Assembly: GCA_016213885.1 (NCBI GenBank)
Contig: JACQZM010000191.1
Coordinates: 1-55,525 of the forward strand
Direction: 5' to 3'
Source of the DNA: Candidatus Rifleibacteriota bacterium
GTDB lineage: Bacteria > Muiribacteriota > UBA6191 > JACPRK01 > JACQZM01
DNA: 55,525 nt
Each line of letters starts with the position of its first letter. Within the stretch, counting starts at the first letter, position 1. Both the position numbers and the translations under genes were made by a program. This document shows, piece after piece, positions 21,371 to 54,307 of the stretch. The notes beneath the pieces are model-generated. The model was not told the DNA's origin, ran no database searches, and saw only the letters and a list, made by a program, of their open reading frames with translations.

Positions 21371-21552
21371 CGGACCCGGCGAGGCGCCGGGTCGTGGCGC
21401 GCCAGGATCCCCCACCTGTTTCGCGGAGTCGGGTTTGGGATCAGGCCTCGGCCTGGCTGCAGAGTCACCAGGGAGAAGGAAGAGGAGGGGATCCGGATTG
21501 AGGTCGCGCTCGGGGGCGCGACTCGGACCCGGCGAGGCGCCGGGTCGTGGCG
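21371..21552 (+). repeat. Modular intergenic repeat, copy 1 (C-A-B-C)
   Basis: Module A CCAGGATCCCCC...CAGAGTCACC, module B GGAGGGGATCCGGATTGAGGTCGCGCTCGGG, hairpin C GACCCGGCG-AGG-CGCCGGGTC at both ends. Confidence 0.9.
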
Positions 21553-21583
21553 GGCGTCGGCGCCGCGGGTGTATGCTGCCGGG

Positions 21584-22009
21584 GTGCGCGCCGCGCCTCT
21601 CATACTGGTACTGTTGCTGTCGAGCATGCCGGGACGGGCTGCCGGCCTGCCGCCCGCTTCGCTGGCCGCCCTTCACGAACCGGGGCGCGTCCGGCTGGTG
21701 CTCAAGGAGGCGCCGGCCACCGTGGTGATCGAGGCGCTCTCCCGCGCGGCCGGCCTCGATCTCGTGATGCCGGCGCTCCCGGGTCTCACGCTGACGGTCC
21801 ACCTGCACTCCGCCTCCATCGCCGAGGCGTTGGCTGCGATCTCCGACGTGTCCGGCATCGAGACCGAGATCCGCGGCCGGATCCTCGTGGTGTTCGCCCC
21901 GGGGCGGCAGCCGACCACGACCAGGCTCTACACGACGGATCGGCTCACGCCGCGGGCGCTCTCGGACGCCCTGGAAGAGCGGGAGCGGCAGGCAGCGCCG
22001 CCGCCTTGA
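21584..22009 (+). CDS. Secretin/TonB short N-terminal (STN)-like stand-alone protein
   Basis: Signal peptide; RVRLVLKEAPATVVIEALSRAAGLDLV...LTVHLHSASIAEALAAI...GIETEIRGRILVV; GTG 6 nt after TATGCT suggests a leaderless mRNA. Confidence 0.65.
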   Translation: MRAAPLILVLLLSSMPGRAAGLPPASLAALHEPGRVRLVLKEAPATVVIEALSRAAGLDLVMPALPGLTLTVHLHSASIAEALAAISDVSGIETEIRGRILVVFAPGRQPTTTRLYTTDRLTPRALSDALEERERQAAPPP

Positions 22010-22050
22010 CGGGCTCGGCTGGCGGTCCCCTCGGGCTCGCCGGCTTTGCA

Positions 22051-22135
22051 CGGACCCGGCCGGAGGGGAAAAGGAGGGGATCCGGTTGGAATCGCGCTCG
22101 GAGGCGCGAACTGGATCCGGCGAGGCGCCGGATCT
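22051..22135 (+). repeat. Modular intergenic repeat, copy 2 (partial, B-C)
   Basis: GGAGGGGATCCGGTTGGAATCGCGCTCGG followed by hairpin GATCCGGCG-AGG-CGCCGGATC (22114-22134). Confidence 0.8.
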
Positions 22136-22149
22136 TTCGCAGGACATCG

Positions 22150-22179
22150 TTGTCGGTGCGGTGAACCACGTGCTATGAT
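22150..22179 (+). promoter_or_regulatory. Sigma70-type promoter
   Basis: TTGTCG, 18-nt spacer, extended -10 TGcTATGAT upstream of ATG 22247. Confidence 0.45.
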
Positions 22180-22246
22180 CCGCCTCCGCCAGAGCCGCGG
22201 GTGTTCCTGCTCTGGTGTCTTTCTCAACACGAAGGAGCTTCGCTTC

Positions 22247-23835: not shown

Positions 23836-24007
23836 CTCTCGCCGACGGTTCGTGCCGCCCCCGGCCGGTCGGTTGCCTCGCCCTGGTCGTGTGAGCGAGA
23901 TTCTTCGCGGAATCCTGGCTTTCGTGCTGCTGCCCACTTGTCATTTGGACGATCCTCTTGTTATATTTATGCGCTCCTTTTCCCTTGGAGAAGATCGGAG
24001 GCTCTTG

Positions 24008-24787: not shown

Positions 24788-24889
24788 CCGCCCGGAGAGC
24801 GTCGTTCCCCTGTGGTCGGGTGCCACGAAGGCTCCGATGGTCAAACTCTCTACCCGGTCGTCGAGGGGTGGCCCCCCCGCCCGGGCCGG

Positions 24890-24925
24890 AAAAACAGAGG
24901 CCAGCCCCTCACGGGCTGGCCTTTC
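24890..24925. terminator. Probable bidirectional intrinsic terminator
   Basis: AGGCCAGCCC-CTCAC-GGGCTGGCCT stem between convergent genes, A-run on the left, TTT on the right. Confidence 0.65.
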
Positions 24926-24959
24926 GACGTCGGCGCCGGCGCCTTCGAGACTTCCGGGG

Positions 24960-25310: not shown

Positions 25311-25479
25311 ACGTCACCTCCTAGGCGCTAGAATGCCGAGGGTCTTCGCACTGCGAACCTCCCCCCAATGATCCTTCTACGTAGCTCCGGCCAGTAGGTT
25401 GCCCGAAAGACGAAGAAAGGCTAATAGATTTCGCAGCCGCCCCCCGCGGGGCCGGGCCGGCGGAAGTGAGGAGTTCTGA

Positions 25480-27230: not shown

Positions 27231-28034
27231 GTGATCCTGGATGAGATCCTCGCCTCGACGAGGCGAGACATCAGAGAGAGGAGCCGGCGGCGTCCGCTGG
27301 AGAGCGGGCCGGTCCGACAGCCCCGCAACGCTCTGCGGGCGGCACTGTCCCGCCCGGGGGTGGGGCTGATCTGCGAGATCAAGAAGGCCTCTCCGTCGAG
27401 CGGACCGATCGCCCCGGCCCTCGACGTCGCGGCCCGGGCGCGGGAGTACGCCGAGGCGGGGGCCCGGGCGATCTCGGTCCTGACGGAGCCGCACTACTTC
27501 TCGGGGTCGCTGGCCGATCTCGAGACGGCCGGGCAGGCCGTCCAGATCCCTCTTCTCAGAAAGGACTTCATCCTGTGCGAGTACCAGGTCTACGAGACGG
27601 CGCTCTCGTCGGCGGCGGCCCTGCTCCTCATCGTGGCCGCCCTGGACTCGAGCACCCTGTCCCGGCTTCTGACCCTCGCCGATCAGCTGGGCCTCGACTG
27701 CCTGGTGGAGGTGCACACCGACCGTGAGCTCGATGTGGCCCTCGAGTGCGGCAGCACCCTCATCGGGGTCAACAACCGGGACCTGTCGACCTTGAAGGTG
27801 GATCTCGCCGTCTCGGAGCGATTGATCCCGTCGATACGCCCGCCCCGGATCGCCGTGGCCGAATCGGGCTTCTCCACCCCGGGTCAGATCGCTCGATTGG
27901 CCGATCTGGGCGCCTCCGCCTTCCTCGTGGGAGGGGCGCTCATGACCCACCGCAGTCCGGGCCAGAAGATCGCCGAGCTGATGAGCCTGGTGAGCCGGCG
28001 TTCCCAACCGACCGGGCCATCGTCTATACAATAG
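27231..28034 (+). CDS. trpC: Indole-3-glycerol phosphate synthase
   Basis: ILDEI, EIKKASPS, ISVLTEPHYFSGS, LRKDFI, LVEVH, IGVNNRDL, VAESG, FLVG. Confidence 0.96.
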   Translation: MILDEILASTRRDIRERSRRRPLESGPVRQPRNALRAALSRPGVGLICEIKKASPSSGPIAPALDVAARAREYAEAGARAISVLTEPHYFSGSLADLETAGQAVQIPLLRKDFILCEYQVYETALSSAAALLLIVAALDSSTLSRLLTLADQLGLDCLVEVHTDRELDVALECGSTLIGVNNRDLSTLKVDLAVSERLIPSIRPPRIAVAESGFSTPGQIARLADLGASAFLVGGALMTHRSPGQKIAELMSLVSRRSQPTGPSSIQ

Positions 28035-35189: not shown

Positions 35190-35263
35190 CCGCCAGGACC
35201 CGGGAAAGAGGCCTTCCGGAACGCGACGCCTTGACTCCTCCTCAAGACGAAGGAGGGAGTCGC

Positions 35264-37276
35264 TTGAACCGCTTCGTTGTGTGGGGTACCGCGTTAGGAG
35301 TGTTGTTCAGTGGCCTTCCAGGCTATACCGCTGACGCGCCGAAGGCGGCGGACAAGGGGGCCACCGAGGCCGGCAAGGAAGCGCCTCGCAAGGCCAAGAA
35401 GGCTCGCAAGGCCAAGAGAATGAAGAAGGACGTCGGCCACGTCTCCGCGGAGAGGGCGAGCGGCCCGTTCGCCGACATCCCGAAGGGGCACTGGGCCTAC
35501 GAGGCCGTGGCGAAAGCCGTGGAATCGGGGCTGCTCCAGGGTTACGAGAACAAGTACTACGGGAACCGCGCCATGACCCGGTACCAGATGGCCGTGGTGG
35601 TGGCCCGGATGCTCGAGAAGTTGGCCGTGCTGAGGTCCAACGGCCGGATGTTCACGGCGCAGGACATCGCGAACCTCGAGGCGCTGACCATCGAGTTCGC
35701 CGATGAGCTCGCGCTGTTGAACGTCAAGGTGTCGACCTTGGAGGAGCAGACGGCGGTCCTGAGGAAGGACGTCGACCAGCTGAAGTACGAGCTGGGCACC
35801 GGCGGGCCCAGGAGCCCGATCACCGGCCTGATCGCGGCCCGCGCCGTGGTCACCTCCAGCGGCAACCCGGGTTACGGCCAGCTGGCCCCGGCCAACACCC
35901 CTCGATCCGCCGCCACCCCCAGCATGCTCCGCTACCGGGGCGACCCCTCCGGCCCGGGCGACATCTTCGCCAACGGCGGTGGCATCGCTGGCAATCCGTG
36001 GCAGTTCTCCAACAGGTTCTTCATGACGGTCTCGCAGCTGTCGCTGAACCTGGACCGCCAGATCGCCAAGGATGTGGAACTGCACACCCAGATCGACGTC
36101 AACGCCGAGGCTGCGGACCGGGCGTACGGCGTTCCGGCCAACGGCCCCCAGATGACGTTCGACCCGATCTACGGCACTGCGGCTAGACTGCAGGACACGC
36201 CGTTCAGCTTGAACGGCCCGTTCTACCAGGGCAGCGGTCGAGGAGCCAGCTTCTTCGGCAGCCCGATCCAGGTCAACGAAGCGTACGTCCAGTTCAACGG
36301 CTGGGTCGGCGACGCCGACGCCAAGCTCGGCGTCTTCGCCACTCCGTTCAACGTTGAAGTGAACGGCCCCTCGAGGACCTACAACTGGACGCTCACCCCG
36401 TCGGTGGCGAACAGCTTCTGGGAAGGCCTGCGGATGACCGGGGTGGAAGTCCGCCAGGGCCGGAAGGAAGACTACTGGCTGTGGAACCTCGGCGTGTTCT
36501 CGAACCTCGACATGCCCAACGGCGCTGCCGGTGCCACCCTGCTGTCCGGCACCCAGGCCGCCTCTGGCGCCGGCCCGCTGGATCCGTTCGGCAACCTGGC
36601 CGGCACCCGGTTCCCGACCCCCCGCGCCGGTGTGATGACCGACGCTCCGCGGGGCATCAACGGTGAGACCGAGCAGGACAACGTGGGCTACTACGCCCGG
36701 GTCGGTGGCCAGGAGAAGGACAACCTGGGCTTCGGCTGGCAGCTCGGCTACGTCAACAACGGCGGGGAGATCCGGCCGTCCAGCTCTGGCCGGGGCACCT
36801 GGTCCGAGTGGGACGCCTATCAGATCGCCCTGGACTACAAGTGGCACGAGTGGATGATCCTCTCCCAGTACTACGGTGGCCGGACCAAGAACCTGTCGGT
36901 CGTCGATCTGACCAGCGGGATCGCCGGGTTCGACTACCGCCGATCGTTCGCCGTCGCCGGTTTCCTGGGAACGCCGTTCCCGAACGCGACCCGCGCCGAC
37001 ACCACGTCGGATTCGGTGATGGGCCTGGTCTCCTACGCCTGGTCCAAGCAGTCGTCGCTGACCCTGAGGTACGAGAACGCCGTGGATCAGACCGGCAACG
37101 CGATGATCGGCGGCTCGTTCTGGACTTTCGGTTACAACCGGAAGGTCGGCGATCGCGGGATGCTGCAGGCGGAGTACATCACCGCGACCACCCGGACCCG
37201 AGCCGAGAACCTGAGCTACATCGGCACGGACATCGCCGACGACATCGCCCAGCTGAACTACAAGCTGCAGTTCTAG
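35264..37276 (+). CDS. SLH-coiled-coil-beta-barrel outer-membrane tether (OmpM-like), paralogue 1
   Basis: TTG after AGGAGG; signal peptide; SLH FADIPKGHWAYEAV...GLLQGY...MTRYQMAVVVARML; coiled coil EFADELALLNVKVSTLE; beta-rich body ending LNYKLQF. Confidence 0.85.
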   Translation: MNRFVVWGTALGVLFSGLPGYTADAPKAADKGATEAGKEAPRKAKKARKAKRMKKDVGHVSAERASGPFADIPKGHWAYEAVAKAVESGLLQGYENKYYGNRAMTRYQMAVVVARMLEKLAVLRSNGRMFTAQDIANLEALTIEFADELALLNVKVSTLEEQTAVLRKDVDQLKYELGTGGPRSPITGLIAARAVVTSSGNPGYGQLAPANTPRSAATPSMLRYRGDPSGPGDIFANGGGIAGNPWQFSNRFFMTVSQLSLNLDRQIAKDVELHTQIDVNAEAADRAYGVPANGPQMTFDPIYGTAARLQDTPFSLNGPFYQGSGRGASFFGSPIQVNEAYVQFNGWVGDADAKLGVFATPFNVEVNGPSRTYNWTLTPSVANSFWEGLRMTGVEVRQGRKEDYWLWNLGVFSNLDMPNGAAGATLLSGTQAASGAGPLDPFGNLAGTRFPTPRAGVMTDAPRGINGETEQDNVGYYARVGGQEKDNLGFGWQLGYVNNGGEIRPSSSGRGTWSEWDAYQIALDYKWHEWMILSQYYGGRTKNLSVVDLTSGIAGFDYRRSFAVAGFLGTPFPNATRADTTSDSVMGLVSYAWSKQSSLTLRYENAVDQTGNAMIGGSFWTFGYNRKVGDRGMLQAEYITATTRTRAENLSYIGTDIADDIAQLNYKLQF

Positions 37277-37308
37277 TGGCTTCGTAGCCGCGGCGACTCG
37301 ATAGTCGA

Positions 37309-37355
37309 GAGCCGGCCCGTGGGGATCGCCCCGCAGGCCGGCTTCTTCCTTGTTC
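37309..37355 (+). terminator. Intrinsic terminator
   Basis: AGCCGGCC...GGGG-ATCG-CCCC...GGCCGGCT followed by a pyrimidine/T-rich tract. Confidence 0.6.
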
Positions 37356-37371
37356 GACGTTTTCCAGGCGA

Positions 37372-37482
37372 CCAGGATCCCCCGCCTGTTTCGCGGAGTC
37401 GGGCCTGTGATCAGGCCTCGGCCTGCCTACAGAGTCACCAAGGAAGCGGAGGGTGTTCATTTGAAGTCGCGCTCGGGGGCGC
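37372..37482 (+). repeat. Modular intergenic repeat, copy 3 (A-B', no hairpin C)
   Basis: CCAGGATCCCCCGCCTGTTTCGCGGAGTCGGGCCTGTGATCAGGCCTCGGCCTG...TTGAAGTCGCGCTCGGGGGCGC. Confidence 0.9.
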
Positions 37483-37843
37483 TGCTCTGGAGCCGGTTCT
37501 CGGAGCTTCCGGGCAGTCGGAGCGGCCGCATCCCGCTGCCAGAGCCGATCGTCATCGATCACACCCCACGGCGGCGCCGGTGCACGATGGCCTGTATTCC
37601 ACTCATGAAGAGCATTTGGGCACGTGGCTGGAGCTCGCGGGAGAACCCCGGGCAGGCGGGCCGGGTCGTTCACCCATGGCGCTTCTCACTATATAGGGGC
37701 CGGTGGGGGATGGTAGCCCCCAGCGGGTCGATCGTCACCCCGCCGGGCATCGCCTTCGTCGCGGACTTCTTTTTTCTACCTCCATGGGCCAGGTCGCCAC
37801 GAAATGCCGTTGGGAAGCCCATCTTCCCGACTCGAAAAAAAAC

Positions 37844-37873
37844 TTGTGCCGGCACTAGACGATTTGCTATTCT
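37844..37873 (+). promoter_or_regulatory. Possible sigma70 promoter for OmpM-like paralogue 2
   Basis: TTGTGC, 18-nt spacer, extended -10 TGcTATTCT, preceded by an A-tract (UP-like). Confidence 0.45.
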
Positions 37874-37969
37874 CTTGCCGCTTCAACCAAACTGTGGGTC
37901 CTCTGACTGATTTTGTCCTCTGAAGACTCATCGCCGGAACGAAGCGGCAGCCGCACGCGGCACCCTCAT

Positions 37970-37989
37970 CAAGGCAACTTGGAAACTTG
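37970..37989 (+). promoter_or_regulatory. Conserved leader hairpin, copy 2
   Basis: CAAG-GCAACTTGGAAA-CTTG, ~100 nt upstream of GTG 38091. Confidence 0.55.
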
Positions 37990-38090
37990 CTGAGAAGAGC
38001 GTCGGCCATCCCGCCATCGAACCTCGGGCGATCGTTCAAGAGGCGACCCGGTCGGACGAGACCCGGGATGTGACCTTTCAGGAGGTTCAC

Positions 38091-39934
38091 GTGCGACGCT
38101 TTTTCTTGACGATCCTGGCACTGATGGTCCTCGTCAGTGCGACCGCCGCTTTCGCCGACGCGTTCTCCAGGGCTGGGACAACAGGTTCCACGGCAACAAG
38201 GTGGTCAACCGCTACCAGATGGCAGTGGTCGTGGCCCGGATGCTCGACCGCGTTGGCGTCTTGAAGGCCAACGGCAAGGTCATCACGGCCCAGGACATCG
38301 CCAACCTGGAATCGCTGACCATCGAGTTCGCCGATGAGCTCGCGCTCTTGAACGTGAAGGTCAGCACCCTGGAAGACACCGTGGCCGGTCTGAAGAAAGA
38401 TGTCGACCTGATCAAGGCCGACCTCCGTGGCGTCGGCGCCCGCGCCGGCATCACCGGGACCATGCAGGCCCGCTTCGTGTTCACCTCCGACGGCTCCAAC
38501 GGCTGGGCGCCCGGCAACTTCGTGACCGGCCAGGTTCCGAACGCCGCCGCGTCGACCGCCATCGGCCGCTACAAGGGTGGCTCCACCGGGCTGGCCGTCA
38601 ACAACGCCTTCCTGGCCAACAGCGTGACCAACCCGTACCGGTTCGACAGCCGCCAGTTCTTCTCGGTCTCCAACTTCGCGGTCAACATCGACCGCGAGTT
38701 CGACCCGAAGTTCCACTTCCACGCGCAGGTGGACATCAACGCGGAAGGCGCCTGGGATCAGATGGGCGCCCGGTCGGTCTTCGGTGGCTTCTCCCCGACC
38801 TGGGCCGGCTCGACCTTCGCGATCGGTGGCAATCCTCTCTCCGGCCGTGGCGAGAACTTCGCGTTCGCCAACGGGTCGGTGCTCGATGCCCTCGTGAACG
38901 AAGTGTACGTGGTGTGGGACGACTGGTTCACCGACGGCGTGTCTGGCCGGCTGGGTATCTGGGCGCTCCCGATGAACACTGAAGTGAACGGCCCGAGCCG
39001 CTCCTACCAGTGGACGATCACCCCGTCGATCGCGAACAGCAAGTGGGAAAGCCTGAGGCCGGTCGGTCTGGACATCTTCCAGCACAACGACAAGGAAAGC
39101 CTGGTGTTCTACGTCGGATTCTTCACCCCCGGCGACACGACCCAGATGATCCACCGGTCCGGTACCCTCCTCTCCGCCCCGACCGGGTTCACCGCGGTGC
39201 CGGTCACCACGAACCTGGCCACCAACGTCTTCGGCACGCAGGTCGACCCCACCGTGAATCCTGGTGGAGCCGCCTGGGGTCTTGGCCGGTTCCCGACCCC
39301 GCTGGCCTACGCGGCGATGACCGACGCGGCTCGCGGCGTTCAGGGCCAGACGCTGGCCTCCGACGACATCGGGTTCTACTTCCAGATCGGGACGCACCCG
39401 ACCAACAAGGGCCACGAAGGTCTGACCTGGCACGTCGCCTACTTCGATCGCAACGGCGATCTGCGGCCTGCCACCGACGACTTCATCAGCGCCACCGACT
39501 GGTACGCCTGGCAGCTCGCGGCCAACTACCAGTGGGAGAAGGTCATGCTGGGCATCCAGTACTTCGACGCGACCTCCAGGAACTACAACCTGGCGGATCC
39601 GGTCGTGGACTGGCGCCGGCAGAACACCACCCCGTTCCTGAACGTGGGCGGCCAGGACACCCAGTCCCGGTCGATCATGGCCATCGTGAACTGGGCGTTC
39701 TCCAAGCGTGGCAACGTGACGGTCCGCTACGAAGCCGCGGAAGACAAGACCGGCCTCGCGAAGCTCGAAGCCGATGTCTGGACGTTCGGTTTCAACTGGA
39801 AGACCAGCGACCACAGCCGGTTCCAGCTGGAGTGGATCGCCCCCACGACCAAGGCCACCTCCGAGAACGGCTGGCGGAACACCAGCGACATCAAGGACGA
39901 CCTGGTCCAGCTGAACTACAAGCTCAACTGGTAA
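38091..39934 (+). pseudogene. OmpM-like paralogue 2, frameshifted by an apparent deletion in the SLH domain near 38165
   Basis: GTG after GGAGG gives MRRFFLTILALMVLVSATAAFA-DAFS, then another frame continues LQGWDNRFHGNKVVNRYQM...; the DVP..HWAY..GI part of the SLH is missing; ends LNYKLNW. Confidence 0.85.
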
Positions 39935-39946
39935 GGTCCCACCGTC

Positions 39947-40016
39947 CCGGGCCCTGACAGGGCCCGGCGGACATCGAACCCGGCCCGCGGTCTCCCGCTG
40001 GCCGGGTTTTCGTTTG
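39947..40016 (+). terminator. Tandem hairpins ending in an intrinsic terminator
   Basis: CCGGGCCCTG-A-CAGGGCCCGG (39947-39967), then AACCCGGCC...GGCCGGGTT followed by TTCGTTTG. Confidence 0.7.
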
Positions 40017-40258
40017 TCCGCCGGGTGGTGGCGCACGACCGAACGACGCCTGCCGGTGGGCCCGGGAGCAGAAAAGACAGGCTGGGCGTTCCGGCCCCCT
40101 CGAATGTAGAAAAATCGGCCGCTCGACCACTGATTTGTCAGATTTTCCTCCGTGACCGCCGATAGATGGCCTAGGGAGAGCGTCCGTTCTCTCGGGTGGT
40201 CATCGGTGGACACGGCGTCGCGCACGGCCGAGCCGGCGAGTCACCGGGAGCGATCGAA

Positions 40259-40278
40259 CAAGGAAACACGGCCACTTG
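40259..40278 (+). promoter_or_regulatory. Conserved leader hairpin, copy 3
   Basis: CAAG-GAAACACGGCCA-CTTG within the longer stem CGAACAAG/CTTGTTCG, ~80 nt upstream of TTG 40361. Confidence 0.55.
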
Positions 40279-40360
40279 TTCGTCAGGCTCGCGGGGCCTC
40301 GTCCCGGACCGGAACCGGACCGGGTCGTGTCCATCACCGGATGTTCGAGGAGGTCTGGAC

Positions 40361-42238
40361 TTGAAGTGCACCGCTAGGTTACTCGTCGCGGCCCTCTTTC
40401 TGAGCTTGGTGCTCGGCGCGGAAGCCGCCCCGGCGAAGAAGAGCAAGAAGAAGAAGGCGCGACCTGCAGTTGCCTGCTCGAAGGTCAAGGCGGGCCCAAG
40501 CGGCCCGTTTGCCGACGTTCCTCCGGGCCACTGGGCCTACGAGGCGATCTCGAAGGCGGTTGGCGCCGGGATCCTCCAGGGCTGGGAGAACAAGTTCCAC
40601 GGAAACAAGGTGGTCAACCGCTACCAGATGGCGGTGATCGTGGCCCGGATGGTCGACCGGATGGGCGTCTGGAAGGCGAACGGCCGGACGATCACCGCCG
40701 AGGACGTGGCCAACCTGGAATCCCTGGTCATCGAGTTCGCCGATGAGCTGGCCATGCTCAACGTGCGGATCAACAAGGCCGAGGACGCCATCGCCGGCAT
40801 CAGGAAGGATCTCGATCTGATCAAGGCGGAGATGGCCAGCGGCGGGGTCAAGTCCGGCATCTCCGGAGTCCTCTCCACGAGGTTCGTCATGACCGGGAAT
40901 GCCTCCCCGGGCTGGAACCCCGGCTCGTTCATCGGTAGCGCCACGATCCCCGACCCGGCCGCCACGCACCCGCTGGTGCGCTACAGGGGCGGATGTTCGT
41001 CGGGCATCGGAACAAGGGCCAATCCGCTGCGGTTCGACAGCCGGAACTTCTTCACCGCCTCCAACTTCTCGGTGTCCATCGACAGACACTACGATCCGCA
41101 CCGCTACTTCCACGCGCAGGTCGATCTGAACTCCGAGGGCCTGCTGGAGGACTTCGCCGTGCAGGCCACGGCCGGCACTGGCCTGCCCACCGCGGGGCGT
41201 GGCGAGAACTTCGCCTCGTCGGCCAGTCAGCTCATGGTGAACGAGGCGTACGCGGTCTGGGAGGACTGGTTCAAGCCCCAGATCAACGGCCGGCTGGGCA
41301 TCTTCGCCCTGCCGATGAACACGGAGGTGAACGGCCCCGGGCGGACCTACCTGTGGACGCTCACCCCGTCGATCGCCAACTCCAAGTGGGAATCGCTCAG
41401 GCCCGTCGGCCTGGACATCTTCCAGGACATCGACTGTGACGAGTTGACGTTCTACGTCGGCTTCTTCACCCCCGGCGAGACCGCGGGCGGCGTCCTCCGG
41501 TCGGGCACCCTCCTCTCGTCGCCGACCCCGTTCGGCGCCACTGCCCAGACCGACCTGAGCGTGAACCCTGCCGGTGCCGGGTTCGGAGCAGGACGGTTCC
41601 CGTCGCCGCTGTTCGGTCCGGCCATGACCGACGGTCCGCGGGGAGTCCAGGGGCAGAGCCTGTCGGCGACCGACATCGGGTTCTACGGCTGCATCGGGAC
41701 CCGACCGACCAAGAAGGCCGACGGGATCCGATGGCACCTGGCCTACTTCGACAGGAACGGCGATCTGAGAGCCGGAACCAACGAGCACATCAGCCAGACC
41801 GACTGGTACGCCTGGCAGGCCTCCGCCAGCTATCAGTGGACCGAGTACCTGCTGCTGGCCCAGTACTACAACGGTATCTCGAAGAACTACAACACGGCGG
41901 ACGGCATCATCGACGCCCGCCGTGGGATCACCACGCCGTTCGTGAACGTGGGCGCGCTGGATACGGACTCCGCGTCGTTCATGTTCCTGTTCAACTGGCA
42001 GTTCTGCCCCAAGGGGGCGACGACGGTGCGGTTCGAGAAGGCGTGGGACGAGACCGGACTGGCCAGGCTCGAAGCCGAGGTCCTGACGTTCGCCTTCAAC
42101 TGGAAGGCGTCGGACCACAGCTGGCTGCAGGCGGAGTACATCACGGGGAACTCCCGAAGCCGCTCCGAGAATGGCTTCCGGAACACCCAGGACATCGAGG
42201 ACGACATGTTCCAGGTCAACTACAAGTTGAACTGGTAG
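40361..42238 (+). CDS. OmpM-like SLH-coiled-coil-beta-barrel, paralogue 3
   Basis: TTG after GGAGG; signal peptide; Lys-rich linker; FADVPPGHWAYEAI...GILQGW...NRYQMA; EFADEL; ends VNYKLNW. Confidence 0.85.
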   Translation: MKCTARLLVAALFLSLVLGAEAAPAKKSKKKKARPAVACSKVKAGPSGPFADVPPGHWAYEAISKAVGAGILQGWENKFHGNKVVNRYQMAVIVARMVDRMGVWKANGRTITAEDVANLESLVIEFADELAMLNVRINKAEDAIAGIRKDLDLIKAEMASGGVKSGISGVLSTRFVMTGNASPGWNPGSFIGSATIPDPAATHPLVRYRGGCSSGIGTRANPLRFDSRNFFTASNFSVSIDRHYDPHRYFHAQVDLNSEGLLEDFAVQATAGTGLPTAGRGENFASSASQLMVNEAYAVWEDWFKPQINGRLGIFALPMNTEVNGPGRTYLWTLTPSIANSKWESLRPVGLDIFQDIDCDELTFYVGFFTPGETAGGVLRSGTLLSSPTPFGATAQTDLSVNPAGAGFGAGRFPSPLFGPAMTDGPRGVQGQSLSATDIGFYGCIGTRPTKKADGIRWHLAYFDRNGDLRAGTNEHISQTDWYAWQASASYQWTEYLLLAQYYNGISKNYNTADGIIDARRGITTPFVNVGALDTDSASFMFLFNWQFCPKGATTVRFEKAWDETGLARLEAEVLTFAFNWKASDHSWLQAEYITGNSRSRSENGFRNTQDIEDDMFQVNYKLNW

Positions 42239-42623: not shown

Positions 42624-44369
42624 ATGACCACTACCCAGAGAATTGCCAAGATGAAGCTGGGGGAGGCGCTCATCGCCAACGGCTTCATCAACCAGGAGCA
42701 GCTCAAGGAGGCCATCGCACGCCAGAAGCAGACCGGCAAGCGACTCGGACAGATCCTCATCGAGATGAGGGTCGTGACCGAGCGGGACATCACAGAAGTC
42801 CTGTCCAAGCAGCTCAACGTCCCGTTCATCGACCTGTCGAACTACATCATCGACCCGGCGATCGCCAAGCTGGTGCCGGAGCACATCGCCCAGCGACACC
42901 AGCTGATCCCGATCAACAAGGTGGGCAACAAGCTCACCGTGGCGATGGTGGACCCGCTGAACGTCCTGGCCGTGGACGACATCCAGCTCATGACGGGGCT
43001 TCAGGTGAAGGCGGTGGTGGCCACCCCGTCTGACGTGCAGAAGGCCCTGCAAGACACCTACGGCGCCCATTCCCAGCTCGACAAGGTGTTCGACGACATC
43101 GCCGGGACCGACATCGCCAAGGAAGCTGCCAGCGCAGAGGACCTCGAGTCTTTCGGAGAGCTGGGCGAGAACGACGCTCCGATCATCCGGCTGGTGAACC
43201 TCATCATCACCCAGGCCGTCAATATCGGGGTTTCCGACATCCACATCGAACCCTACGAGAAGGAGCTGAGGGTCAGGTACCGCAAGGACGGAGTGCTCTA
43301 CACGGAGATGACCCCTCCCAAGAAGGCCCAGGCAGCCATCACGAGCCGCGTGAAGATCATGTCCTCCCTGGACATCGCGGAGAAGCGGCTCCCCCAGGAC
43401 GGTCGTATCAAGCTGAAGGTGAACAACCGCGGCATCGACCTCAGGGTATCGGTCCTGCCCACCGCCTGGGGCGAGAAGGTGGTCATGCGGATCCTCGACC
43501 AGGCGGGCCTCCGGGTGAACCTCGAGGACCTGGGGTTCGAGCCCGCCACGTACGAGCGGTTCAAGGACGGCATCAAGACCCCGTACGGCATCATCCTGGT
43601 GACCGGACCCACCGGATCGGGCAAGACCACCACGCTCTACTCCGCCCTCACGACGCTCAACGAGATCAGGGTGAACATCCTGACCGCAGAAGACCCGATC
43701 GAGTACCAGCTCCACGGAGTCAACCAGGTGCAGTGCAAGCCGGAGATCGGGCTCACGTTCGCGGCGGCGCTCCGGTCTTTCCTGCGGCAAGACCCGGACA
43801 TCATCATGGTGGGAGAGATCCGCGACTACTAGACCGCGGAGATCGCCATCAAGGCCTCCATGACCGGCCACCTGGTGCTGTCGACGCTCCACACGAACGA
43901 CGCGCCCTCCACGGTGGGCCGGTTGCTGGACATGGGCGTCGAGGCTTTCATGGTCACCTCCTCGGTCATCTTGATCCAGGCCCAGCGGCTGGTCCGCACC
44001 TGCTGCAAGGACTGCAAGAAGGAGCTGAAGCCGAAGAAAGAGGTGGTGGACAGCCTCGGGATCAACACGGAGCTGCTGCGCCGCCTCGACCTCCCTCACA
44101 TCGACGAGAAGAACCTCAAGTTCTTCAAGGGTGAAGGGTGCGACACCTGCAACCGCGACGGCTACAAGGGTCGCATGGGCGTGTACGAGGTCATGAAGAT
44201 GTCCGAGAACGTCCGCCAGTGCATCTTGAAGGGCGGATCCACCACGGACGTCTTCCGCCTGGCCAAGTCGGAGGGGATGCTCACCCTGCGTGAGTCGGCC
44301 CTCCGGAAGGCGCTCCTGGGAGTCACCACCGTGGAAGAGGTGGTCCGGGTCACCGCCGCCGACCGGTAG
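42624..44369 (+). pseudogene. pilB: Type IV pilus assembly ATPase PilB interrupted by an in-frame TAG at 43830-43832
   Basis: MshEN-like KLGEALIANGFI...RLGQIL; SDIHIEP; RLPQDGRI; GPTGSGKTT; EDPIEY; [40 protein letters not shown] continues in the same frame. Confidence 0.95.
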
Positions 44370-44391: not shown

Positions 44392-44575
44392 CCAGGATCC
44401 CGCACCCGTTTCGCAGGGCTTGGGCTGTGATCACCCTCTTGGCCGGATCGAGGCTCACGAAGGAAGTGGAGGGGATCCGGTTGGAGTCGCACTCGGGAGA
44501 GAGAAAGAGGAGAGGATCAGGTTGAAGGTCGCGCTCGGGGGCGCGACTCGGATCCGGCGAGACGCCGGATCTGGC
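44392..44575 (+). repeat. Modular intergenic repeat, copy 4 (diverged A-B-B-C)
   Basis: CCAGGATCCC...TGTGATCA..., two B modules, hairpin GATCCGGCG-AGA-CGCCGGATC (44551-44571). Confidence 0.85.
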
Positions 44576-44614: not shown

Positions 44615-44803
44615 CTCTGAACCGGAGAGAGCGGGCATCGGCGGCCCAGGGAGACGGGCCGGGACCGGCTCGTGCCGTCCCGGGGCATCCCCCGCGCTCA
44701 CCCTCCGGTATCTGGCTGGGCATCGCGGACCAGCGCCGGGTCTTCAGAGGAGTTTCCGCAGACAGCGTACCAACCACCAGCCGAGAGCAGGGAGAGACCA
44801 GGA

Positions 44804-45862
44804 ATGTTCGTTCTGAACGATCTCCTCAATCTGGTAGTCGACAACGACGCATCGGACCTTCACCTGACCGTCGGGACGCCACCGATCATCCGCGTCGACG
44901 GAGACCTGATCCCGACCGACCTGGACGTTCTGACGCCCATGGACACGCGCAGCCTCATCTACAACATGCTCACCGCGGAGCAGCAGAAGGCGTTCGAGAA
45001 AGACCTCGAGCTGGACATCAGCTACTCCGTGCACGGGTTCGGTCGGTTCCGCGTGAACGTCTACAAGCAGCGCGGCTGCATCGCTGCCGCATTCCGGATC
45101 ATTCCCTCGAAGATCCCGACCCTGGAGGAGCTGAAGCTCTCGCCGGTCATCCAGGAGTTCTCGAAGCTTCACAAGGGGCTGGTGTTGATCACGGGGCCCA
45201 CCGGGTCCGGAAAGTCCACGACGCTGGCGGCCCTGATCGACCTGATCAACGAGACCCGTCGGTGCCACATCGTCACGATCGAGGACCCGATCGAGTACCT
45301 GCACTACCACAAGAAGTCGATCATCAATCAGCGGGAGCTCCACGTCGACACCCACTCGTTCCCCAACGCCTTGAAGCACGTCCTCAGAGAAGACCCCGAC
45401 GTGATCCTGGTCGGTGAAATGCGAGACCTGGAGACGATCGAGACGGCGCTCACCCTGGCAGAGACCGGCCACCTCGTGTTCGGTACGCTGCACACCACCG
45501 ATGCGGCCCAGACGATCAACCGCGTGGTGGACGTGTTCCCGCCCCACCAGCAAGGGCAGGTGAGAACGCAGCTGTCGTTCGTGCTGCGAGCCGTGGTGGC
45601 GCAGCAGCTTCTCCAGACCGCATCCGGCAAGGGCCGGGTCGTCTGCGAGGAGATCCTGATCGTCAATCCGGCGGTCCAGAACATCGTCCGGGAGCAGAAG
45701 ATCCAGCAGCTGTACACGGTCATGCAGACCGGTCAGAGTCTGGGCATGAAGACGTTCGAACAGTCGCTCAGGGACCTCTACTCCAGGGGCGAGATCACCT
45801 ACCAGGAGGCCATGGTTCACACGTCCAGACCGGATGAGCTGGCACGGATGCTGAAAGGTTAG
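44804..45862 (+). CDS. pilT: Type IV pilus retraction ATPase
   Basis: ASDLHL, RFRVNVY, GPTGSGKSTT, EDPIEY, REDPDVILVGEMRD, ETGHLVFGTLHT, AIRNLIRE-like AVQNIVRE. Confidence 0.95.
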   Translation: MFVLNDLLNLVVDNDASDLHLTVGTPPIIRVDGDLIPTDLDVLTPMDTRSLIYNMLTAEQQKAFEKDLELDISYSVHGFGRFRVNVYKQRGCIAAAFRIIPSKIPTLEELKLSPVIQEFSKLHKGLVLITGPTGSGKSTTLAALIDLINETRRCHIVTIEDPIEYLHYHKKSIINQRELHVDTHSFPNALKHVLREDPDVILVGEMRDLETIETALTLAETGHLVFGTLHTTDAAQTINRVVDVFPPHQQGQVRTQLSFVLRAVVAQQLLQTASGKGRVVCEEILIVNPAVQNIVREQKIQQLYTVMQTGQSLGMKTFEQSLRDLYSRGEITYQEAMVHTSRPDELARMLKG

Positions 45863-47325: not shown

Positions 47326-49024
47326 CTATCGAACGGTCTCCGGTGGGCGCCCCACGAGGCTCCGTCTCAGCACCGGCAACCTGGGATCCTCCGGATTTTC
47401 CCGGATCAGGGCATCGACCAGGCCGAGCGCCCTGGCGACCTCCCTGCGTCGCAGGTAGATCTGGGCCAGATTGACCCCAGACGCCACGTCATGACGATCC
47501 AGCGCCATGGCCTCTTCGAGGTGGGGAGTCGCCCGGTCCGGCTCGCCCCGCTTGAGATAGAGAAACGCCAGGTTGGCGGCCAGACGCGGCAGGTCCGCCC
47601 GGATCCGCCGCGCCTCCAGAAGGGCCGGTTCGGCCGCATCCAGGTGGCCTAGCAAGAGCCGCGCCCGTCCCAGGCCCAGGAGGAACTCCGGCGGGGTGTA
47701 GCGCTGCTCCCTGGCCAGCGCCAGCGCCAGCTCGAATCGTGAGCACGCCTCTCCGGGCTCGCCCTGGGCCAGGAGCACCTGGGCCAGGTTCCCCTGGGCG
47801 ACCGGCCAGCGGTCGTTCACCCGGACCTGGTGGCTCCAGAGCGACCTGGCGTCCCGCCAGGGCGGCAGGTTCACCACGAGCAAGGCCCCGTACATGAGCA
47901 AGAGACCGACCAGCACCACCGGGGAGGCCCGGGAGGGGCGGCCGGTGCGGGGAACGAGGAACCGGGCGATCCCCAGGCACGCGGCAGCGCTGGGCAGGTA
48001 CAGGTACCGCTCCTGGATCAGGTTCGTCCCCGGCCGGGTCAGGTTCAGGGTCAGCGGGGCGAGGAGCAGCAGCAGGCAAACGCTCCACACCCATCGTCAG
48101 CGTCGCCACGATCTCGTGGGCCGGCGGCGGGGGCCCCTGGCCCAGACGGGCCACCGAGTAGTCCAGGCGGCTGGTGCCACAGCCGACCAGGTGGGCGGCT
48201 GTCTGGGTGCCGAGCGCCCAGGCACACCGGACGACCTGGGCGCCGGGCGAGCTCATGAGCTGATGTGCGAGGCCGGTCGGCACGCTGCCCACCACGACGG
48301 TGCGGATCGCGAGCCACGCGAGAGCGCAGGCCGAGAGAGCGGCGAACACGACGAGCCACCGGCGTGGGGCCGGGTCGGGCGACCGCGCCGGACTCGCCCC
48401 TCCCGGGGCCCGCCAGCCAGCCAGCCAGCCATGGGCCAGAACGACCACGGGCAGAACGATGACCGATTCCTTGGAGAGGAGCGCCCCGGCGAAGGCGAGG
48501 ACCGAAGCGGCCAGGTACGAGCTCCCCCTGGTCAGCGCTCCCAACGCCAGGATCCAGGTCCCCAGGGCCAGAGCCGTGGACAGGAGGTCTGCCCGGGCGC
48601 TGATCCAGCAGATCGCCTCGGCGTGGGCCGGGTGCAGAGCGAACAGCAGGCCCGTTGCCAGAGCGACTCGACGCCGCTGCCCAAGCGACAGCGCCCAGAT
48701 CCCCACGAGCAGGGAGCAGCAGCCGTGGAGCAGGGCGTTGGTGACGTGTCCTCCACCGGGACCGGGGCCGGAGAGTGTCCGATCCGAAGCGTAGGTGAGC
48801 ATGGTGAGAGGCCTGTAGAACGGATACCCTCTTCCCATCCATCTCTCGAGGGAGCCGGTGAGCAGCCGGCCGGTCCCGCCCGGCTCGGCGAGATCGCGAT
48901 TCTGGACGATCAGGCCGAAGTCGTCATGGACGAAACCGAAGGTGTGGGTCTGCCAGGCCACGGCGATACCGACCAGCAGCGGGGCGACGACGGCCAGAGC
49001 CTTGAATCGGTCGGGGTTCGGCAT
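47326..49024 (-). pseudogene. TMTC-like GT-C glycosyltransferase with C-terminal TPRs, frameshifted near 48092
   Basis: FVHDD, YRPL, HPAHAEAICWISARADL, SKE in frame 1; ERYLYLP, W..ARSLW and TPRs in frame 2. Confidence 0.85.
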
Positions 49025-49118
49025 GGGGGTGGGGCCAGCGTCCGCCGGAGCAGATCGCGGGCTGGCGATCACAGAGCCTATCATCGCTGCGGCGGCCGAT
49101 CAACCGGTCGCCGGGACC

Positions 49119-49376
49119 AAGACCCGGCGCCTCGCCGGGTCCGAGTCGCCAGACCCGGCGCCTCGCCGGGTCCGAGTCGCGCCCCCGAGCGCGACCTCAA
49201 TCCGGATCCCCTCCTCTTTCTTCTCCCTCCCGAGCGCGACCTCAATCCGGATCCCCTCCTCTTCCCTTCCCCCGAGCGCGACCTCAAAGGAATCCCCTCC
49301 ACTTCGTTGATGACTCTGCAGCCAGGCCGAGGCCTGATCACAGGCCCGACTCCGCGAACCAGGTGGAGGATCCGGG
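49119..49376 (-). repeat. Modular intergenic repeat, copy 5 (A-B'-B-B-C-C)
   Basis: Reverse complement of the same modules; hairpins at 49121-49141 and 49152-49172; three B-type units. Confidence 0.92.
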
Positions 49377-49572
49377 CGGCCGCTGGCCCTGTCAATCGAG
49401 GCCTCGTGGTTCGAGGGTCCGGAACGTTCGAAAAAAAAGAAGAAAGGCTGAACCGTATCCCCCCTGACCCGTCTTTCCGATACAGTTGAGCAGAATCGGG
49501 ATATTGCGTGCCCCATCTCGATTTGCTAAGATTGGCGTTACTCAGATCTCGAAAGGAGGTGAAAGAAAAGAA

Positions 49573-49944
49573 ATGAGGTACTTCAATCGACCGACCCGGC
49601 GCCAGGGCTTCACCCTGATTGAACTCATGATCGTCATCGCCATCATCGGAGTTCTGGCAGCCATCGCAGTTCCCAACTTCAAGGCCGCTCGCGAGCGCGC
49701 CAACACGCGCGCCTGCTACGCCAACCAGAAGACGGTGGCCGGCGCCATCGAAATGTACAACCTGGACAAGAATACCAAGCGAACCGTCCTGGAAAGCAGT
49801 CTGTGGACCTCGCTGAAGTCCGGCGGCTACCTGCAGTCGATCCCGCAGGACCCCGGCCAGGGCAGCGGCTCTTCTTCGCAGTATCAGTGGACGAGCAACG
49901 GCAACGGCATCAAGTGCAGCAGCCACGGCTACATCCAGAACTAG
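49573..49944 (+). CDS. pilA: Type IV major pilin candidate
   Basis: Strong SD AAAGGAGGT; class III signal peptide MRYFNRPTRRQG|FTLIELMIVIAIIGVLAAIAVPNF; two Cys; own terminator. Confidence 0.9.
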   Translation: MRYFNRPTRRQGFTLIELMIVIAIIGVLAAIAVPNFKAARERANTRACYANQKTVAGAIEMYNLDKNTKRTVLESSLWTSLKSGGYLQSIPQDPGQGSGSSSQYQWTSNGNGIKCSSHGYIQN

Positions 49945-49971
49945 GCCGGAGCTAGCAGCGCTTGCTGGTCG

Positions 49972-50018
49972 CCGGGTCCAGATGGACTTGAATGGCCACT
50001 GGACCCGGTTTTTCGTTT
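49972..50018 (+). terminator. Intrinsic terminator after the pilin
   Basis: CCGGGTCCAG...CTGGACCCGG followed by TTTTTCGTTT. Confidence 0.8.
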
Positions 50019-50049
50019 GTTCCGGATCCGGCGCGTCTCGATCGGCCCG

Positions 50050-52227: not shown

Positions 52228-53869
52228 GCTTCCCCGAGATCGAGGCAGGTCAGATCCAGGGAGAGCGCCTCCTCGAGGTGCGCCCTGGCCTTGTCCATCT
52301 GGCCGTTCACGGCGTAGACCTTGGCCAGCGAGTAGAACAGGAGCCGGTTCCGCGGCGACGACCGCCTCGCGTCGTCGAACGCCCTGAAGGCGCCGTCCCG
52401 GTCGTTCGCCTCGAGGAGGTCCAGCCCCCGGTGGAAGAGGATCTCCCCGCCGACAGCCGCCGCCTCGTAGTCGACCAGCGCCGGGTCCCCGGCGATCCGT
52501 GCCCGGAGTGGACCGCCCGGTGCCGCGGTGGGAGCTCTCCCGGAAGGAAGTTGGCGTACATCTCGTGGGATGGGACCTTGCCCTGTCGGAAGACCGGCAG
52601 GAGCCCTTCGTACTCCTCCTGCCCGCCGATGTGCACGTCCTTGCGCACGCCCTCGCAGTACTGGAGGTAGTCGACCATCAGCGTGGACGCATCGCCCGCC
52701 AGGAACAGGATCGCCCCCCGGGGCAGCGGGGCCAGCAGAGCCTGGGCATAGTCGCGAGGAAAGACCGTGCCGGAGCGGTCGCACCGGCTCCGGTTGGCCC
52801 AGCCCGACCAGAGAAGCAGCGCCACGGCCAGCCCCAGGACCCAGGGACCGCGGCGATCGAGGCCCACCATGAGCCGTTCCAGACCGATGGCGAAGAAGAT
52901 CGAGAGCACCAGGCCCCACAGCAGGAAGTAGCGAGGAAGGAAGTAGATGTCCCGGTTGTCTCCGTAGGCCAGCAGGATGAACAGGTTGAGGAGCGCCGGC
53001 ACTCCCAGCAGGAGGTGGAGCCGCCCCCCGATCCGGTGGATCCCATGAACCCCGAACGCCGCCACCACCAGCAGAGCGGCGGACCAGGGGTGGTCACCGG
53101 CCACACCATGGACCAGGGTCGAGAAGAACGCCCTGACGTTGGCCGGCGAGCGGGCGAACTGCTTGTTCCGGTAGCGCTTCTCGGTCAGGTAGTCGGTCAT
53201 CTGCCCCACGGTGGTCAACGGACCGTAGGCGTTGTACCGCGTGACCGGCGCCCGGATCGGCAGGTACGCGTAGAGCGAGAGGGCGAGGACGAACAGCGCG
53301 AGCGCCTGGGCCCGGCGGGTCCATGATTCCTGGAGCGCCACATAGGCCAGAAGCGGCAGGATGAGGACCGCCAGCAGGTGGGTCGAGAGGGAGAAGCCCG
53401 CCAGAAGCGCCAGCAGGAGGAACGACCTGGAGCCTCGACGATCGAGGACCACCAGCACGAGGAGGAGCTCCCAGGCCAGGAGCGCCTGGGTCAGCCGATA
53501 GGTCCGGGCGATCGTGGCCTGGGACCACGGAGTGGCCGCGAGCCCGTAGGTGAGCGCCCCGACCAGGGCGAGGGAGGGGCGGACTTGCCGGCGGAGGATC
53601 CAGAAGACGGCGAGGCAGGCGCTGGCCGAAGCGACGCTCGACAGCAGGTTGACCCGGAGCGCCAGCGATCCCAGCGGCACCCGGCAGAACAGGTTCCCCA
53701 GCAGACAGTAGAGCGGAAACCCCGTGGGCTGGGCCACCCCCAGGGTGTGGGCCAGGGCGATCATCTCGCCGGAATCGCCCACGTAGACCGTCGGACAGAC
53801 CGTGGCGACGTAGCACAGAAGCGGCAGGAAGAAGGCCAGAAGAGCGGGGAAGAACCGCGGGAGGCTCAG
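52179..53869 (-). pseudogene. DUF2723 / TMEM260-like GT-C glycosyltransferase with TPR tail, frameshifted near 52505
   Basis: YVATVCPTVYVGDSGE...LGVAQPTGFPLY, RVNLLS, WSQAT, YLPIRA, RYFL, GD...YLQ...GVRKDV; second frame carries TPRs; frame open upstream to a CTG overlapping the preceding stop. Confidence 0.85.
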
Positions 53870-54054
53870 AGGAGGAAGGCCCAGAGCATGGCCAGGATGC
53901 CGCCGACGATGACCGGCGGGGCCAGATCCGGGTGGTTCCGGGCCAGCAGGATGAACCCCAGGATGTACGTCAACAGCCCGATACCGAAGACGACCCAGTT
54001 GGTGGCCGTCAGCTCTTCATGCGCGTCGTCGGTCCGGGGGGGAACGTCGCCCAT
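53866..54054 (-). CDS. Small two-TM membrane protein (DUF3098-like)
   Basis: NWVVFGIGLLTYILGFILL...LAPPVIVGGILAMLWAFLL; stop overlaps the DUF2723 reading frame. Confidence 0.6.
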   Translation of the reverse strand: MGDVPPRTDDAHEELTATNWVVFGIGLLTYILGFILLARNHPDLAPPVIVGGILAMLWAFLL

Positions 54055-54095
54055 CGTTCGCAGTCTAGCAGCGCCGCGTCTCGTTGGCAAGGCGC

Positions 54096-54307
54096 CCAGG
54101 ATCCCCCGCCTGTTTCGCGGATTCGGGCCTGTGATCAGGCCTCGGCCTGGCTGCAGAGTCACCGAGGACGTGGAGGGGGTTCATTTGAAGTCGCGCTCGG
54201 GATAGAGAAAGAGGAGGGGATCCGGATTGAGGTCGCGCTCGGGGGCGCGACTCGGACCCGGCGAGGCGCCGGGTCTGGCGACTCGGATCCGGCGAGGCGC
54301 CGGGTCT
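54096..54307 (+). repeat. Modular intergenic repeat, copy 6 (A-B'-B-C-C)
   Basis: Full module A, two B-type units, hairpins at 54255-54275 and 54286-54306. Confidence 0.92.

Follow-up and report, generated by a model that had tools for sequence, protein, structure and literature searches.

A few well-studied bacteria are known to carry mosaic intergenic repeats, whose spread and function are still debated. We describe here a repeat of this type in contig JACQZM010000191.1, a stretch of 55,525 nt with 67% G+C which we will call the window. It contains six copies, E1 to E6, built from three modules A, B and C. They are a new family of an already known kind, the small dispersed modular repeats. 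The balance of the evidence leans towards a non-coding mosaic intergenic repeat of the BOX kind, restricted to its lineage and without a match in any catalogued family that we searched.

Several described systems have features in common with it. The mycobacterial interspersed repetitive units (MIRU) are tandem units of 40-100 bp in intra-operon spacers, oriented with the genes and with lengths which keep the reading frame. Their short open reading frames (ORFs) overlap the stop and start codons of the flanking genes. In BOX the boxB unit has about 45 nt. The account of this repeat of Streptococcus pneumoniae and relatives (boxA - boxB(n) - boxC) describes a composite intergenic element in which a head and a tail enclose a middle module repeated in tandem, with a number that differs between sites; if transcribed it is predicted to fold into stable stem-loops, and its transcripts extend operons at the 5' or 3' end (PMC3049150). 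Its ends carry inverted repeats which resemble those of ISSpn2, and long BOX arrays yield spurious ORFs on both strands, annotated as hypothetical proteins; to judge from a table title in the same source, pneumococcal repeats are over-represented between convergent genes (PMC3049150). MITEs (transposable elements of miniature size with inverted repeats), such as Correia/NEMIS, ERIC and RUP, are presented there as small non-autonomous structured repeats which can alter the fate of mRNA when transcribed (PMC3049150). In bacterial interspersed mosaic elements (BIMEs) the palindromic units alternate in orientation, according to the description in PMC2817692. The roles proposed in two accounts for BIMEs and for repetitive extragenic palindromes (REP) are mRNA stabilisation, termination and protein binding (PMC2817692, PMC3733652).

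The six copies in the window and their parts are the following; B' is a variant of B which is described after the list.

E1, 21357-21552, plus strand: stump of a truncated element, then a complete element (from the sequence and nhmmer). Stump GGAGGGG... with a C hairpin module at 21367-21393; A 21402-21469; B 21470-21514, with its motif at 21484-21501 and its core at 21503-21514; the arm which closes the hairpin of the B core, 21515-21522; C 21520-21546. Module order C-A-B-C.
E2, 22051-22135, plus strand: element without A, formed by a purine-rich linker, B, the closing hairpin arm and C. B motif 22073-22090, with core ATCGCGCTCGGA; C 22108-22134, a GGATCC...GGATC variant. Module order B-C.
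E3, 37372-37482, plus strand: A 37372-37438; B' 37448-37477, followed by part of the closing arm; C is absent. Module order A-B'.
E4, 44392-44575, plus strand: the most diverged copy. A 44392-44458; B 44468-44497; a second B which ends in the core 44528-44539; C 44545-44571 (GGATCC...GACGCCGGATC). Module order A-B-B-C.
E5, 49119-49376, minus strand: the longest copy. A 49376-49310; B' 49300-49272; B with motif 49259-49242 and core 49240-49229; B with motif 49214-49197 and core 49195-49184; C 49178-49152; C 49147-49121. Module order A-B'-B-B-C-C.
E6, 54096-54307, plus strand: A 54096-54162; B' 54172-54200; B with motif 54213-54230 and core 54232-54243; C 54249-54275; C 54280-54306. Module order A-B'-B-C-C.

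All six sites had been reported in an earlier note on this DNA, and both the modules and their orders are exactly as listed there. One point of interpretation can be added: the leading C of E1 is preceded by GGAGGGGCTCGAC, so we take it for what is left of another, truncated element placed head to tail, and not for a module of E1.

The A module is a head of 68 nt which starts with CCAGGATCC. The B unit has a length of 42 or 45 nt: a purine-rich, GGA-rich linker is followed by GGAGGGGATCCGG..TTGAGGTCGCGCTCGGG. Two types of B are present. The unit right after A usually has a GAAG(C/T)GGAGGG linker; in E3, E5 and E6 this first unit is of the B' form, in which the GATCC word and one base are missing. 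Later units have a AAGAGGAGGGGATCCGGATTGAGG body behind a purine-rich linker. Successive B units are spaced by 42, 42, 42 and 45 nt in the window. The final B, and no other, is followed by GGCGCGAC, with which the B core forms the closed hairpin GTCGCGC-TCGGGG-GCGCGAC. The C unit of 31 nt is a repeat of this closing arm plus a perfect GC-rich hairpin of 9 bp, GACCCGGCG-AGG-CGCCGGGTC. Nine aligned C copies have the flanks GACTCG... and ...TCTKG; the B-core hairpin is flanked by GAG/GTCGCGC. The word GGATCC is found again in A and B, and in the variant C units of E2, E4 and E6. Over all the documented copies, inside and outside the window, the grammar is A - B(1-5) - C(0-2).

Profiles made from the copies and run with nhmmer find exactly five A modules in the window (E 1e-21 to 7e-16; next best E 1.4) and exactly eight C modules (E between 3e-8 and 1e-6, the following hit at 0.83). 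Ten B or B' units are found by anchoring on the B core. As a control for chance we used 100 dinucleotide shuffles for each motif. The C hairpin pattern of 22 nt has eight matches with 0.00 expected, and the 18-nt B pattern six matches with 0.09 expected. For the 12-nt B core, with at most one mismatch, there are 11 matches (nine in elements, two elsewhere) against 2.11 expected. Tandem Repeats Finder detects the C arrays with a period of 31 and 2.0 copies (100% and 96% matches), as well as the B array of E5 with a period of 45 and 2.9 copies. The modular design A / B(n) / C(n) with variable counts, which the earlier note had proposed, is borne out.

The copies are similar to a different extent. 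In a repeat search of the window, pairs of copies have stretches in common which reach 104 nt (99%) and 160 nt (86%). The A modules of E1, E3, E5 and E6 are mutually 90-96% identical. That of E4 has 65-73% identity to the other A modules; taken together with the A module of L040, a copy outside the window, it is 65-75% identical to those four. The terminal B-C block is the same in E5 and E6 across 81 nt. The spread of A identities together with this identical block indicates that there are younger and older copies, or else subfamilies.

All six elements lie in spacers, as claimed for them before, and none touches a coding frame. This statement refers to an approximate gene map, prepared from the frames of G+C content at third codon positions (GC3), ORFs and Pfam. 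The map has 23 spacers of at least 50 nt, which occupy 8,359 of the 55,525 nt (15%). Six of these 23 spacers have an element: four of the ten co-directional, two of the seven divergent and none of the six convergent ones.

The sequence had not been recognised in the earlier note, and no catalogued family has been found for it. Rfam, where a match would have spoken against the interpretation in that note, gives none in the whole window at gathering thresholds; around E5 and E1/E2, with E values up to 10, the best score is 17.1 bits, versus a threshold of 42.5. No element translation out of five reaches the Pfam threshold, with a single row below it (E 0.04). In blastn E5 has no match among the PLSDB plasmids and INPHARED phages, and plasmid or phage DNA was discarded as far as these two collections show. 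Among the papers listed for Riflebacteria genomes and for intergenic repeats of Rokubacteria, none deals with such a repeat, to judge from titles and abstracts.

The elements share with MIRU the tandem intergenic units, the orientation with genes and the frame-keeping length. Unlike MIRU, they have non-repeated A and C modules on either side of their arrays, and no stop/start coupling. The likeness to BOX is one of design only: both have a head, a variable tandem middle and a tail in a fixed order, a tandem middle unit (42/45 nt here), stable predicted stem-loops and spurious ORFs on both strands (PMC3049150). In contrast with that description, here the tail is also repeated in tandem (C, 0-2 copies), two kinds of B are present, first B' and then B, and the head and tail form no inverted repeats with each other. 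The absence of elements from all six convergent spacers also departs from the bias reported in the table title, and the host belongs to another lineage. The parallel which the earlier note drew with both BOX and BIMEs therefore stands for BOX, as an analogy of design (PMC3049150), and fails for BIMEs: their palindromes alternate, to follow the account in PMC2817692, whereas the C units are direct. With REP and BIMEs the family shares short GC-rich extragenic palindromes and linker motifs which form mosaic clusters. It was not accepted as a BIME or REPIN: its C palindromes are direct tandem repeats of period 31 which lack the GTAG or CGTC tag (cf. PMC3733652). REPINs go with a RAYT, a Y1 transposase whose gene is flanked by the repeats; with Pfam no such gene is found among 32 ORFs of the window. 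Small size, intergenic location and strong secondary structure are also found in Correia/NEMIS, ERIC and RUP, as these are summarised in PMC3049150. A MITE, which would have inverted repeats at both ends and target-site duplications, was nevertheless discarded, given that there are no end-to-end inverted repeats and no duplicated flanking word; furthermore the elements are GC-rich and not AT-rich. The distinctive traits of the family are its two tandem modules, its direct palindromes, the lack of occupied convergent spacers and a possible bias in orientation towards genes.

Eleven copies are documented: the six of the window, one in L040 and four detected through proteins. A scan of a genome collection with the 18-nt B pattern gave at least 57 loci. 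We compared the listed ones with the six elements by blastn, and 56 of them share just 18-22 nt of pattern; they were discarded as chance matches in unrelated phyla. The only true copy among the matches listed is L040, a contig of 1,164 nt from a metagenome-assembled genome (MAG) titled Candidatus Methylomirabilota. It has a diverged A module, a B and a C, which run into the contig end, and it lies behind a peptidase-M16-type gene in the same orientation as that gene. For the search through proteins the queries were the sense frame of E5 (P0001) and one antisense frame (P0005). P0001 gave two protein matches among nine candidates from a set of 5.8 billion, and three matches with phmmer among 1.84 billion representative proteins. 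P0005 gave one match among 12 candidates, where only lengths of 50-160 aa were considered.

The four proteins found in this way all belong to NCBI records of Candidatus Riflebacteria bacterium, each on a separate contig. In the sense frame, P0002 has the modules (end of A)-B-B-B-B-C and P0003 has A-B-B-C-C; P0006 has five B and a C in the antisense frame. P0004 is a protein kinase whose annotated start falls inside a B unit: its residues 1-37 correspond to B-C-C, the kinase domain starts at residue 123, and the element ends about 45 nt ahead of the likely true start. The family is present beyond the window with five copies (L040 by blastn, four by mis-called ORFs), a point on which the earlier note had made its interpretation depend. 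Its density of one element per 9 kb holds inside the window, with none in the first 21 kb; the large genome-wide family which it deduced from this density is not shown by the 11 copies documented.

As judged from these sequence searches, the family is rare in public data and confined to a narrow lineage, since P0001 found just the three representatives mentioned. The lineage itself is poorly represented. The TrpC protein of the window (27231-28034, plus strand) has its best non-self relatives at 64-67% identity among 5.8 billion proteins; its matches with named taxa reach at most 52% and come from several phyla. The lack of any relative above 67% indicates that the host lineage is deep and barely sampled. 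This accounts for the public rarity of the family, which says nothing on the number of copies per genome. The phylum labels of the records which bear copies disagree (Candidatus Riflebacteria and Candidatus Methylomirabilota); the 1.2-kb contig L040 may be mis-binned in its MAG.

The orientation of the elements deserves attention. In co-directional spacers, four out of four are oriented with both flanking genes, and all six copies of the window are followed on the 3' side by the start of a gene. If one assumes, as a simple null, a probability of 0.5 in a co-directional spacer, 1 in a divergent one and 0 in a convergent one, the value is 12/23 = 0.52 per element and the chance of six out of six is about 0.02, in what is a small sample. 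The two elements in divergent spacers face one gene by necessity. The distance from the 3' end of the element to the next start codon is 17-32 nt in E1, about 40 in E2, about 600 in E3, 97 in E4, 35 in E5 and 61 in E6. Part of this closeness is a necessary result of the short spacers, most of whose length is taken up by the elements. The orientation with adjacent genes, together with ends which are often 17-100 nt from a start codon, indicates that the elements are probably co-transcribed with them. We consider that E1 and E5, and with less assurance E2 and E4, are probably part of transcripts.

The individual settings are as follows. E1 is in the spacer 21287-21568, between plus-strand genes, and it is followed by the GTG candidates of an ORF of 146 aa (21569-22009). 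E2 is in the next spacer, 22010-22199, also between plus-strand genes. A promoter-like site is found downstream of E2 at 22150-22179 (9/12 consensus), an uncertain call because the in-frame ATG 22175 falls inside the site. E4 starts 22 nt past the stop codon of a gene for a PilB-type ATPase and ends 97 nt before a PilT-type gene (44672-45862). E5 is in the divergent spacer 49085-50016 and faces the minus-strand ATG at 49084, which starts a frame with coding-type GC3; the other gene is 640 nt away. E6 is flanked by two outward-facing promoter-like sites, at 54090-54062 on the minus strand (9/12) and at 54307-54334 on the plus strand (10/12), with 0.0 in shuffles. The TTG in the first hexamer of the plus-strand site is formed by the last bases of E6. 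E3 starts about 17 nt past a long GC-rich inverted repeat with a T-rich run (37308-37355), which follows the stop codon of a gene with S-layer homology (SLH) domains (35231-37276), the first of three in tandem. We read this inverted repeat as a terminator, although a consensus scan with a rule of 3-8 nt for the loop did not list it.

The three tandem genes (35231-42238, plus strand) are paralogues of 681, about 614 and 680 aa, with stretches which are 61-81% identical at distances of 2.3-2.6 kb; SLH domains were matched in the first and the third. Behind each of the three there is a GC-rich hairpin which ends in a T-rich tail. E3 is found behind the first one only, so that the spacers of the second and third serve as paralogous sites which lack the element.

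The ORF of 146 aa bracketed by E1 and E2 has a start like that of a signal peptide and no Pfam match. The arrangement of E1, this ORF and E2 looks like a cassette; sites of the integron type were not seen. In integrons each cassette is followed by an attC site, an imperfect palindrome with RYYYAAC / GTTRRRY core sites. Reading the element sequences by eye we found no core sites of the attC type, and the elements are 5-15 kb apart except for E1/E2. Inside A no convincing promoter of the sigma-54 or sigma-70 type was seen by eye and none appeared in scans. A scan for tRNA and tmRNA gave nothing at the elements.

If they are transcribed, some elements are predicted to fold into stable structures. 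In the long copies the fold of the sense strand is more stable than in shuffles, with z values of -3.0 (E1), -2.8 (E5) and -3.9 (E6); the short or diverged copies E2 (-1.8) and L040 (-1.75) are not set apart in this way. The stem of the C hairpin is paired in 63 of 63 cells across seven distinct copies, and one of its pairs occurs as C-G (four copies), U-A (two) and U-G (one). The 5' end of A (GGATCC[C/T]CC) pairs with GGGGATCC of a B unit in four of seven minimum-energy folds (E1, E5, E6 and L040). One position of this A-B stem, read from the alignment, is G-C in E3, G-U in E6 and A-U in E4 and E5; the stem cannot form in E3, whose sole B' is without GATCC, and we retain it only within the alternative of an RNA leader treated below. 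The wobble pairs are all on the sense strand: they are found in the C stem of E6 and in GGUUUG/CAGGCC of E1. This fact suggests an agreement with the orientation bias and is far from a proof of it.

A mosaic repeat of the BOX kind may work in the following way. Copies would spread to new spacers by a trans-acting enzyme or a recombination route which is not encoded in the window. At each site the number of tandem B and C units would change, in either direction, through slipped-strand mispairing or unequal recombination. The elements would probably be transcribed together with neighbouring genes, and the very stable stem-loops of the transcripts could stall exonucleases or RNA polymerase. In this manner they would modulate the stability or the read-through of neighbouring transcripts, and no product would be encoded.

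Several observations weigh against this interpretation. As regards mobility, the 5' end of A and the 3' end of C show no complementarity in any of the six regions; no transposase or integrase is found with Pfam among 35 ORF translations of the window (32 + 3), and neither a target-site duplication nor a shared flanking word appears in the five window regions and L040 which were read. The bases to the left of A are GCGA, CCAT, CCGC, GCGC, ACCG and CGCG, and no duplicated word is shared with the right of C. Inverted repeats are only internal, with 13 nt at 85% around the A module of E5 (49296-49308 / 49357-49369) and 10 nt in L040; the remaining inverted pairs are due to each palindrome matching its neighbour. 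The earlier note had seen neither terminal inverted repeats nor a transposase, and the inverted-repeat search and Pfam agree with it. With respect to structure, antisense folds are equally stable (z -3.1 in E1, -2.85 in E5, -3.1 in E6), so that folding does not pick a strand. The short and diverged copies are not above shuffles (z +0.1 in E3, -1.1 in E4). The compensated pair of the C stem is not significant: 74 of 500 shuffles also reach it, and for this reason it is only suggestive. For A together with the first B, RNAalifold returns a net covariation penalty (+0.98), with a poor alignment of the linkers, and we do not regard a conserved structure of A as demonstrated. Finally, the orientation bias is based on just six elements and the documented copy number is just 11. 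E3 and E6 may never be transcribed, because E3 is behind a putative terminator and E6 is between outward-facing promoter-like sites.

Some of the same observations could be explained in a different way. The elements might be cis-acting RNA leaders, or a small RNA in multiple copies, in which the number of B units would set the strength of the effect. In such a model the single-stranded B linkers, rich in GGA/GGAGG, would bind the anti-Shine-Dalgarno end or a CsrA-like protein; the 5' end of A (GGATCC[C/T]CC[A/G]CC) would pair with GGAGGGGATCC of a B unit and thus hide or expose the linkers. The model would account for the gene start faced by all six window elements, five of them within 100 nt (and P0004 at about 45 nt), for linkers which are unpaired in the folds of E1, E5, E6 and L040 where the 5' end of A is paired with B, for the G-C, G-U and A-U pairs at one position of the A-B stem and for wobble pairs restricted to the sense strand. 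However there is no match in Rfam, no conserved promoter ahead of A and no hairpin with a T run at the 3' end. The gene downstream of E6 has its best promoter-like site after the element, and 600 nt separate E3 from the next gene; no net covariation is seen with RNAalifold, the A-B stem is impossible in E3, and the short, element-filled spacers would by themselves place part of the elements near start codons. On the whole we consider this explanation rather unlikely. A more specific version is more doubtful still: leaders with a fixed orientation whose B array would be a tunable pad or decoy for the anti-Shine-Dalgarno sequence or for a CsrA-like regulator, gated by the 5' end of A. Equally improbable in our opinion is a role at the level of DNA, as a phased array whose cores, which contain GGATCC, would bind gyrase, a transcription factor or a nucleoid-associated protein, as is reported for REP and BIMEs, with an effect on supercoiling or promoter insulation. 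The B period of 42-45 bp is about four helical turns and the C period of 31 bp about three, GGATCC is repeated in A, in B and in the variant C units of E2, E4 and E6, E6 is placed exactly between two divergent promoter-like sites, and both strands have the same fold stability. Nevertheless there is no candidate binding protein, a symmetric structural role would not be expected to produce a bias in gene orientation, and the helical phasing is a numerical coincidence so far.

A coding role deserves hardly any credit. The B array can be read as EEGIRIEVALG(R/G)EKK, which might represent small repeat proteins: the periods of 42/45 nt, multiples of three, are found in four of four window intervals and in the arrays of P0002, P0003 and P0006. 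Furthermore the B frame has a high GC in third position, between two and four of the six frames are open along whole elements and public annotation calls such ORFs hypothetical proteins. But B' and B differ by an indel of 1 nt, so that the same DNA is read in different frames inside one element; the frame also changes at the A-B junction in two of six cases (E1 and L040) and the period of C is 31 nt. The public ORF calls are on either strand (sense in P0002 and P0003, antisense in P0006), with no Pfam match at threshold, three matches in 1.84 billion representatives and no consistent start codon. Coding was rejected on the basis of the indel, the frame changes, the C period, the calls on either strand and the lack of a Pfam match at threshold. 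The ORF calls across elements are due to one B frame with high third-position G+C together with the 42/45-nt periods; long BOX arrays are reported to give the same artefact in the account available (PMC3049150). We therefore retain the non-coding mosaic repeat as our preferred interpretation.

The window has other features of note. Two giant repeat-protein genes lie in the first 21 kb, and for this reason that region has few spacers and no element. One of them (3302-8146, plus strand) codes for 1614 aa with nine IPT/TIG stretches and FG-GAP repeats; the other one (10591-16545, plus strand) codes for 1984 aa, contains repeats of about 52 nt and matches nothing in Pfam at E 1e-5. ARAGORN places a tRNA-Leu(CAG) at 7852-7940 on the minus strand, inside the first of these genes, which is probably a false positive. 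Upstream of the element region there are also a putative endonuclease of the Uma2 family (9768-10535, minus strand) and an AAA_14/DUF4143 ATPase (18918-20300, minus strand), neither of them flanked by modules. The gene for the PilB/GspE-type ATPase ahead of E4 (42624-44369, plus strand) has an in-frame TAG at 43830-43832, within the conserved sequence VGEIRDY*TAEIA. Both halves match Pfam T2SSE consecutively (profile positions 3-222 and 234-370); the split gene could be a pseudogene, an assembly error or a case of read-through. In the region 47326-49084 (minus strand), which E5 faces, coding-type GC3 is found in one frame from 49084 to about 48091 and then in the frame of a TPR ORF (47326-48090). 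The first frame is open down to 47489, and the upstream 331 aa have no Pfam match. The switch may be a frameshift in one gene or two overlapping calls.

The presence of these elements has practical consequences. Such repeats break metagenome assemblies, as is the case for the L040 contig, which ends inside one. In public annotation they have given rise to false hypothetical proteins (P0002, P0003 and P0006) and to a false N-terminal extension of 37 residues (P0004). With read data, the variable number of B units could be used to tell strains apart. If the elements were RNA leaders, slippage in the number of B units would set the expression of downstream genes of the cell envelope, namely those for the pilus ATPase, the S-layer-homology protein, a glycosyltransferase, a secreted protein and the kinase. 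The family is an independent case of a BOX-like design, from a deep-branching, uncultured lineage. If the orientation bias holds throughout the genome, it would be a good system to ask about selection for a role at the RNA level.

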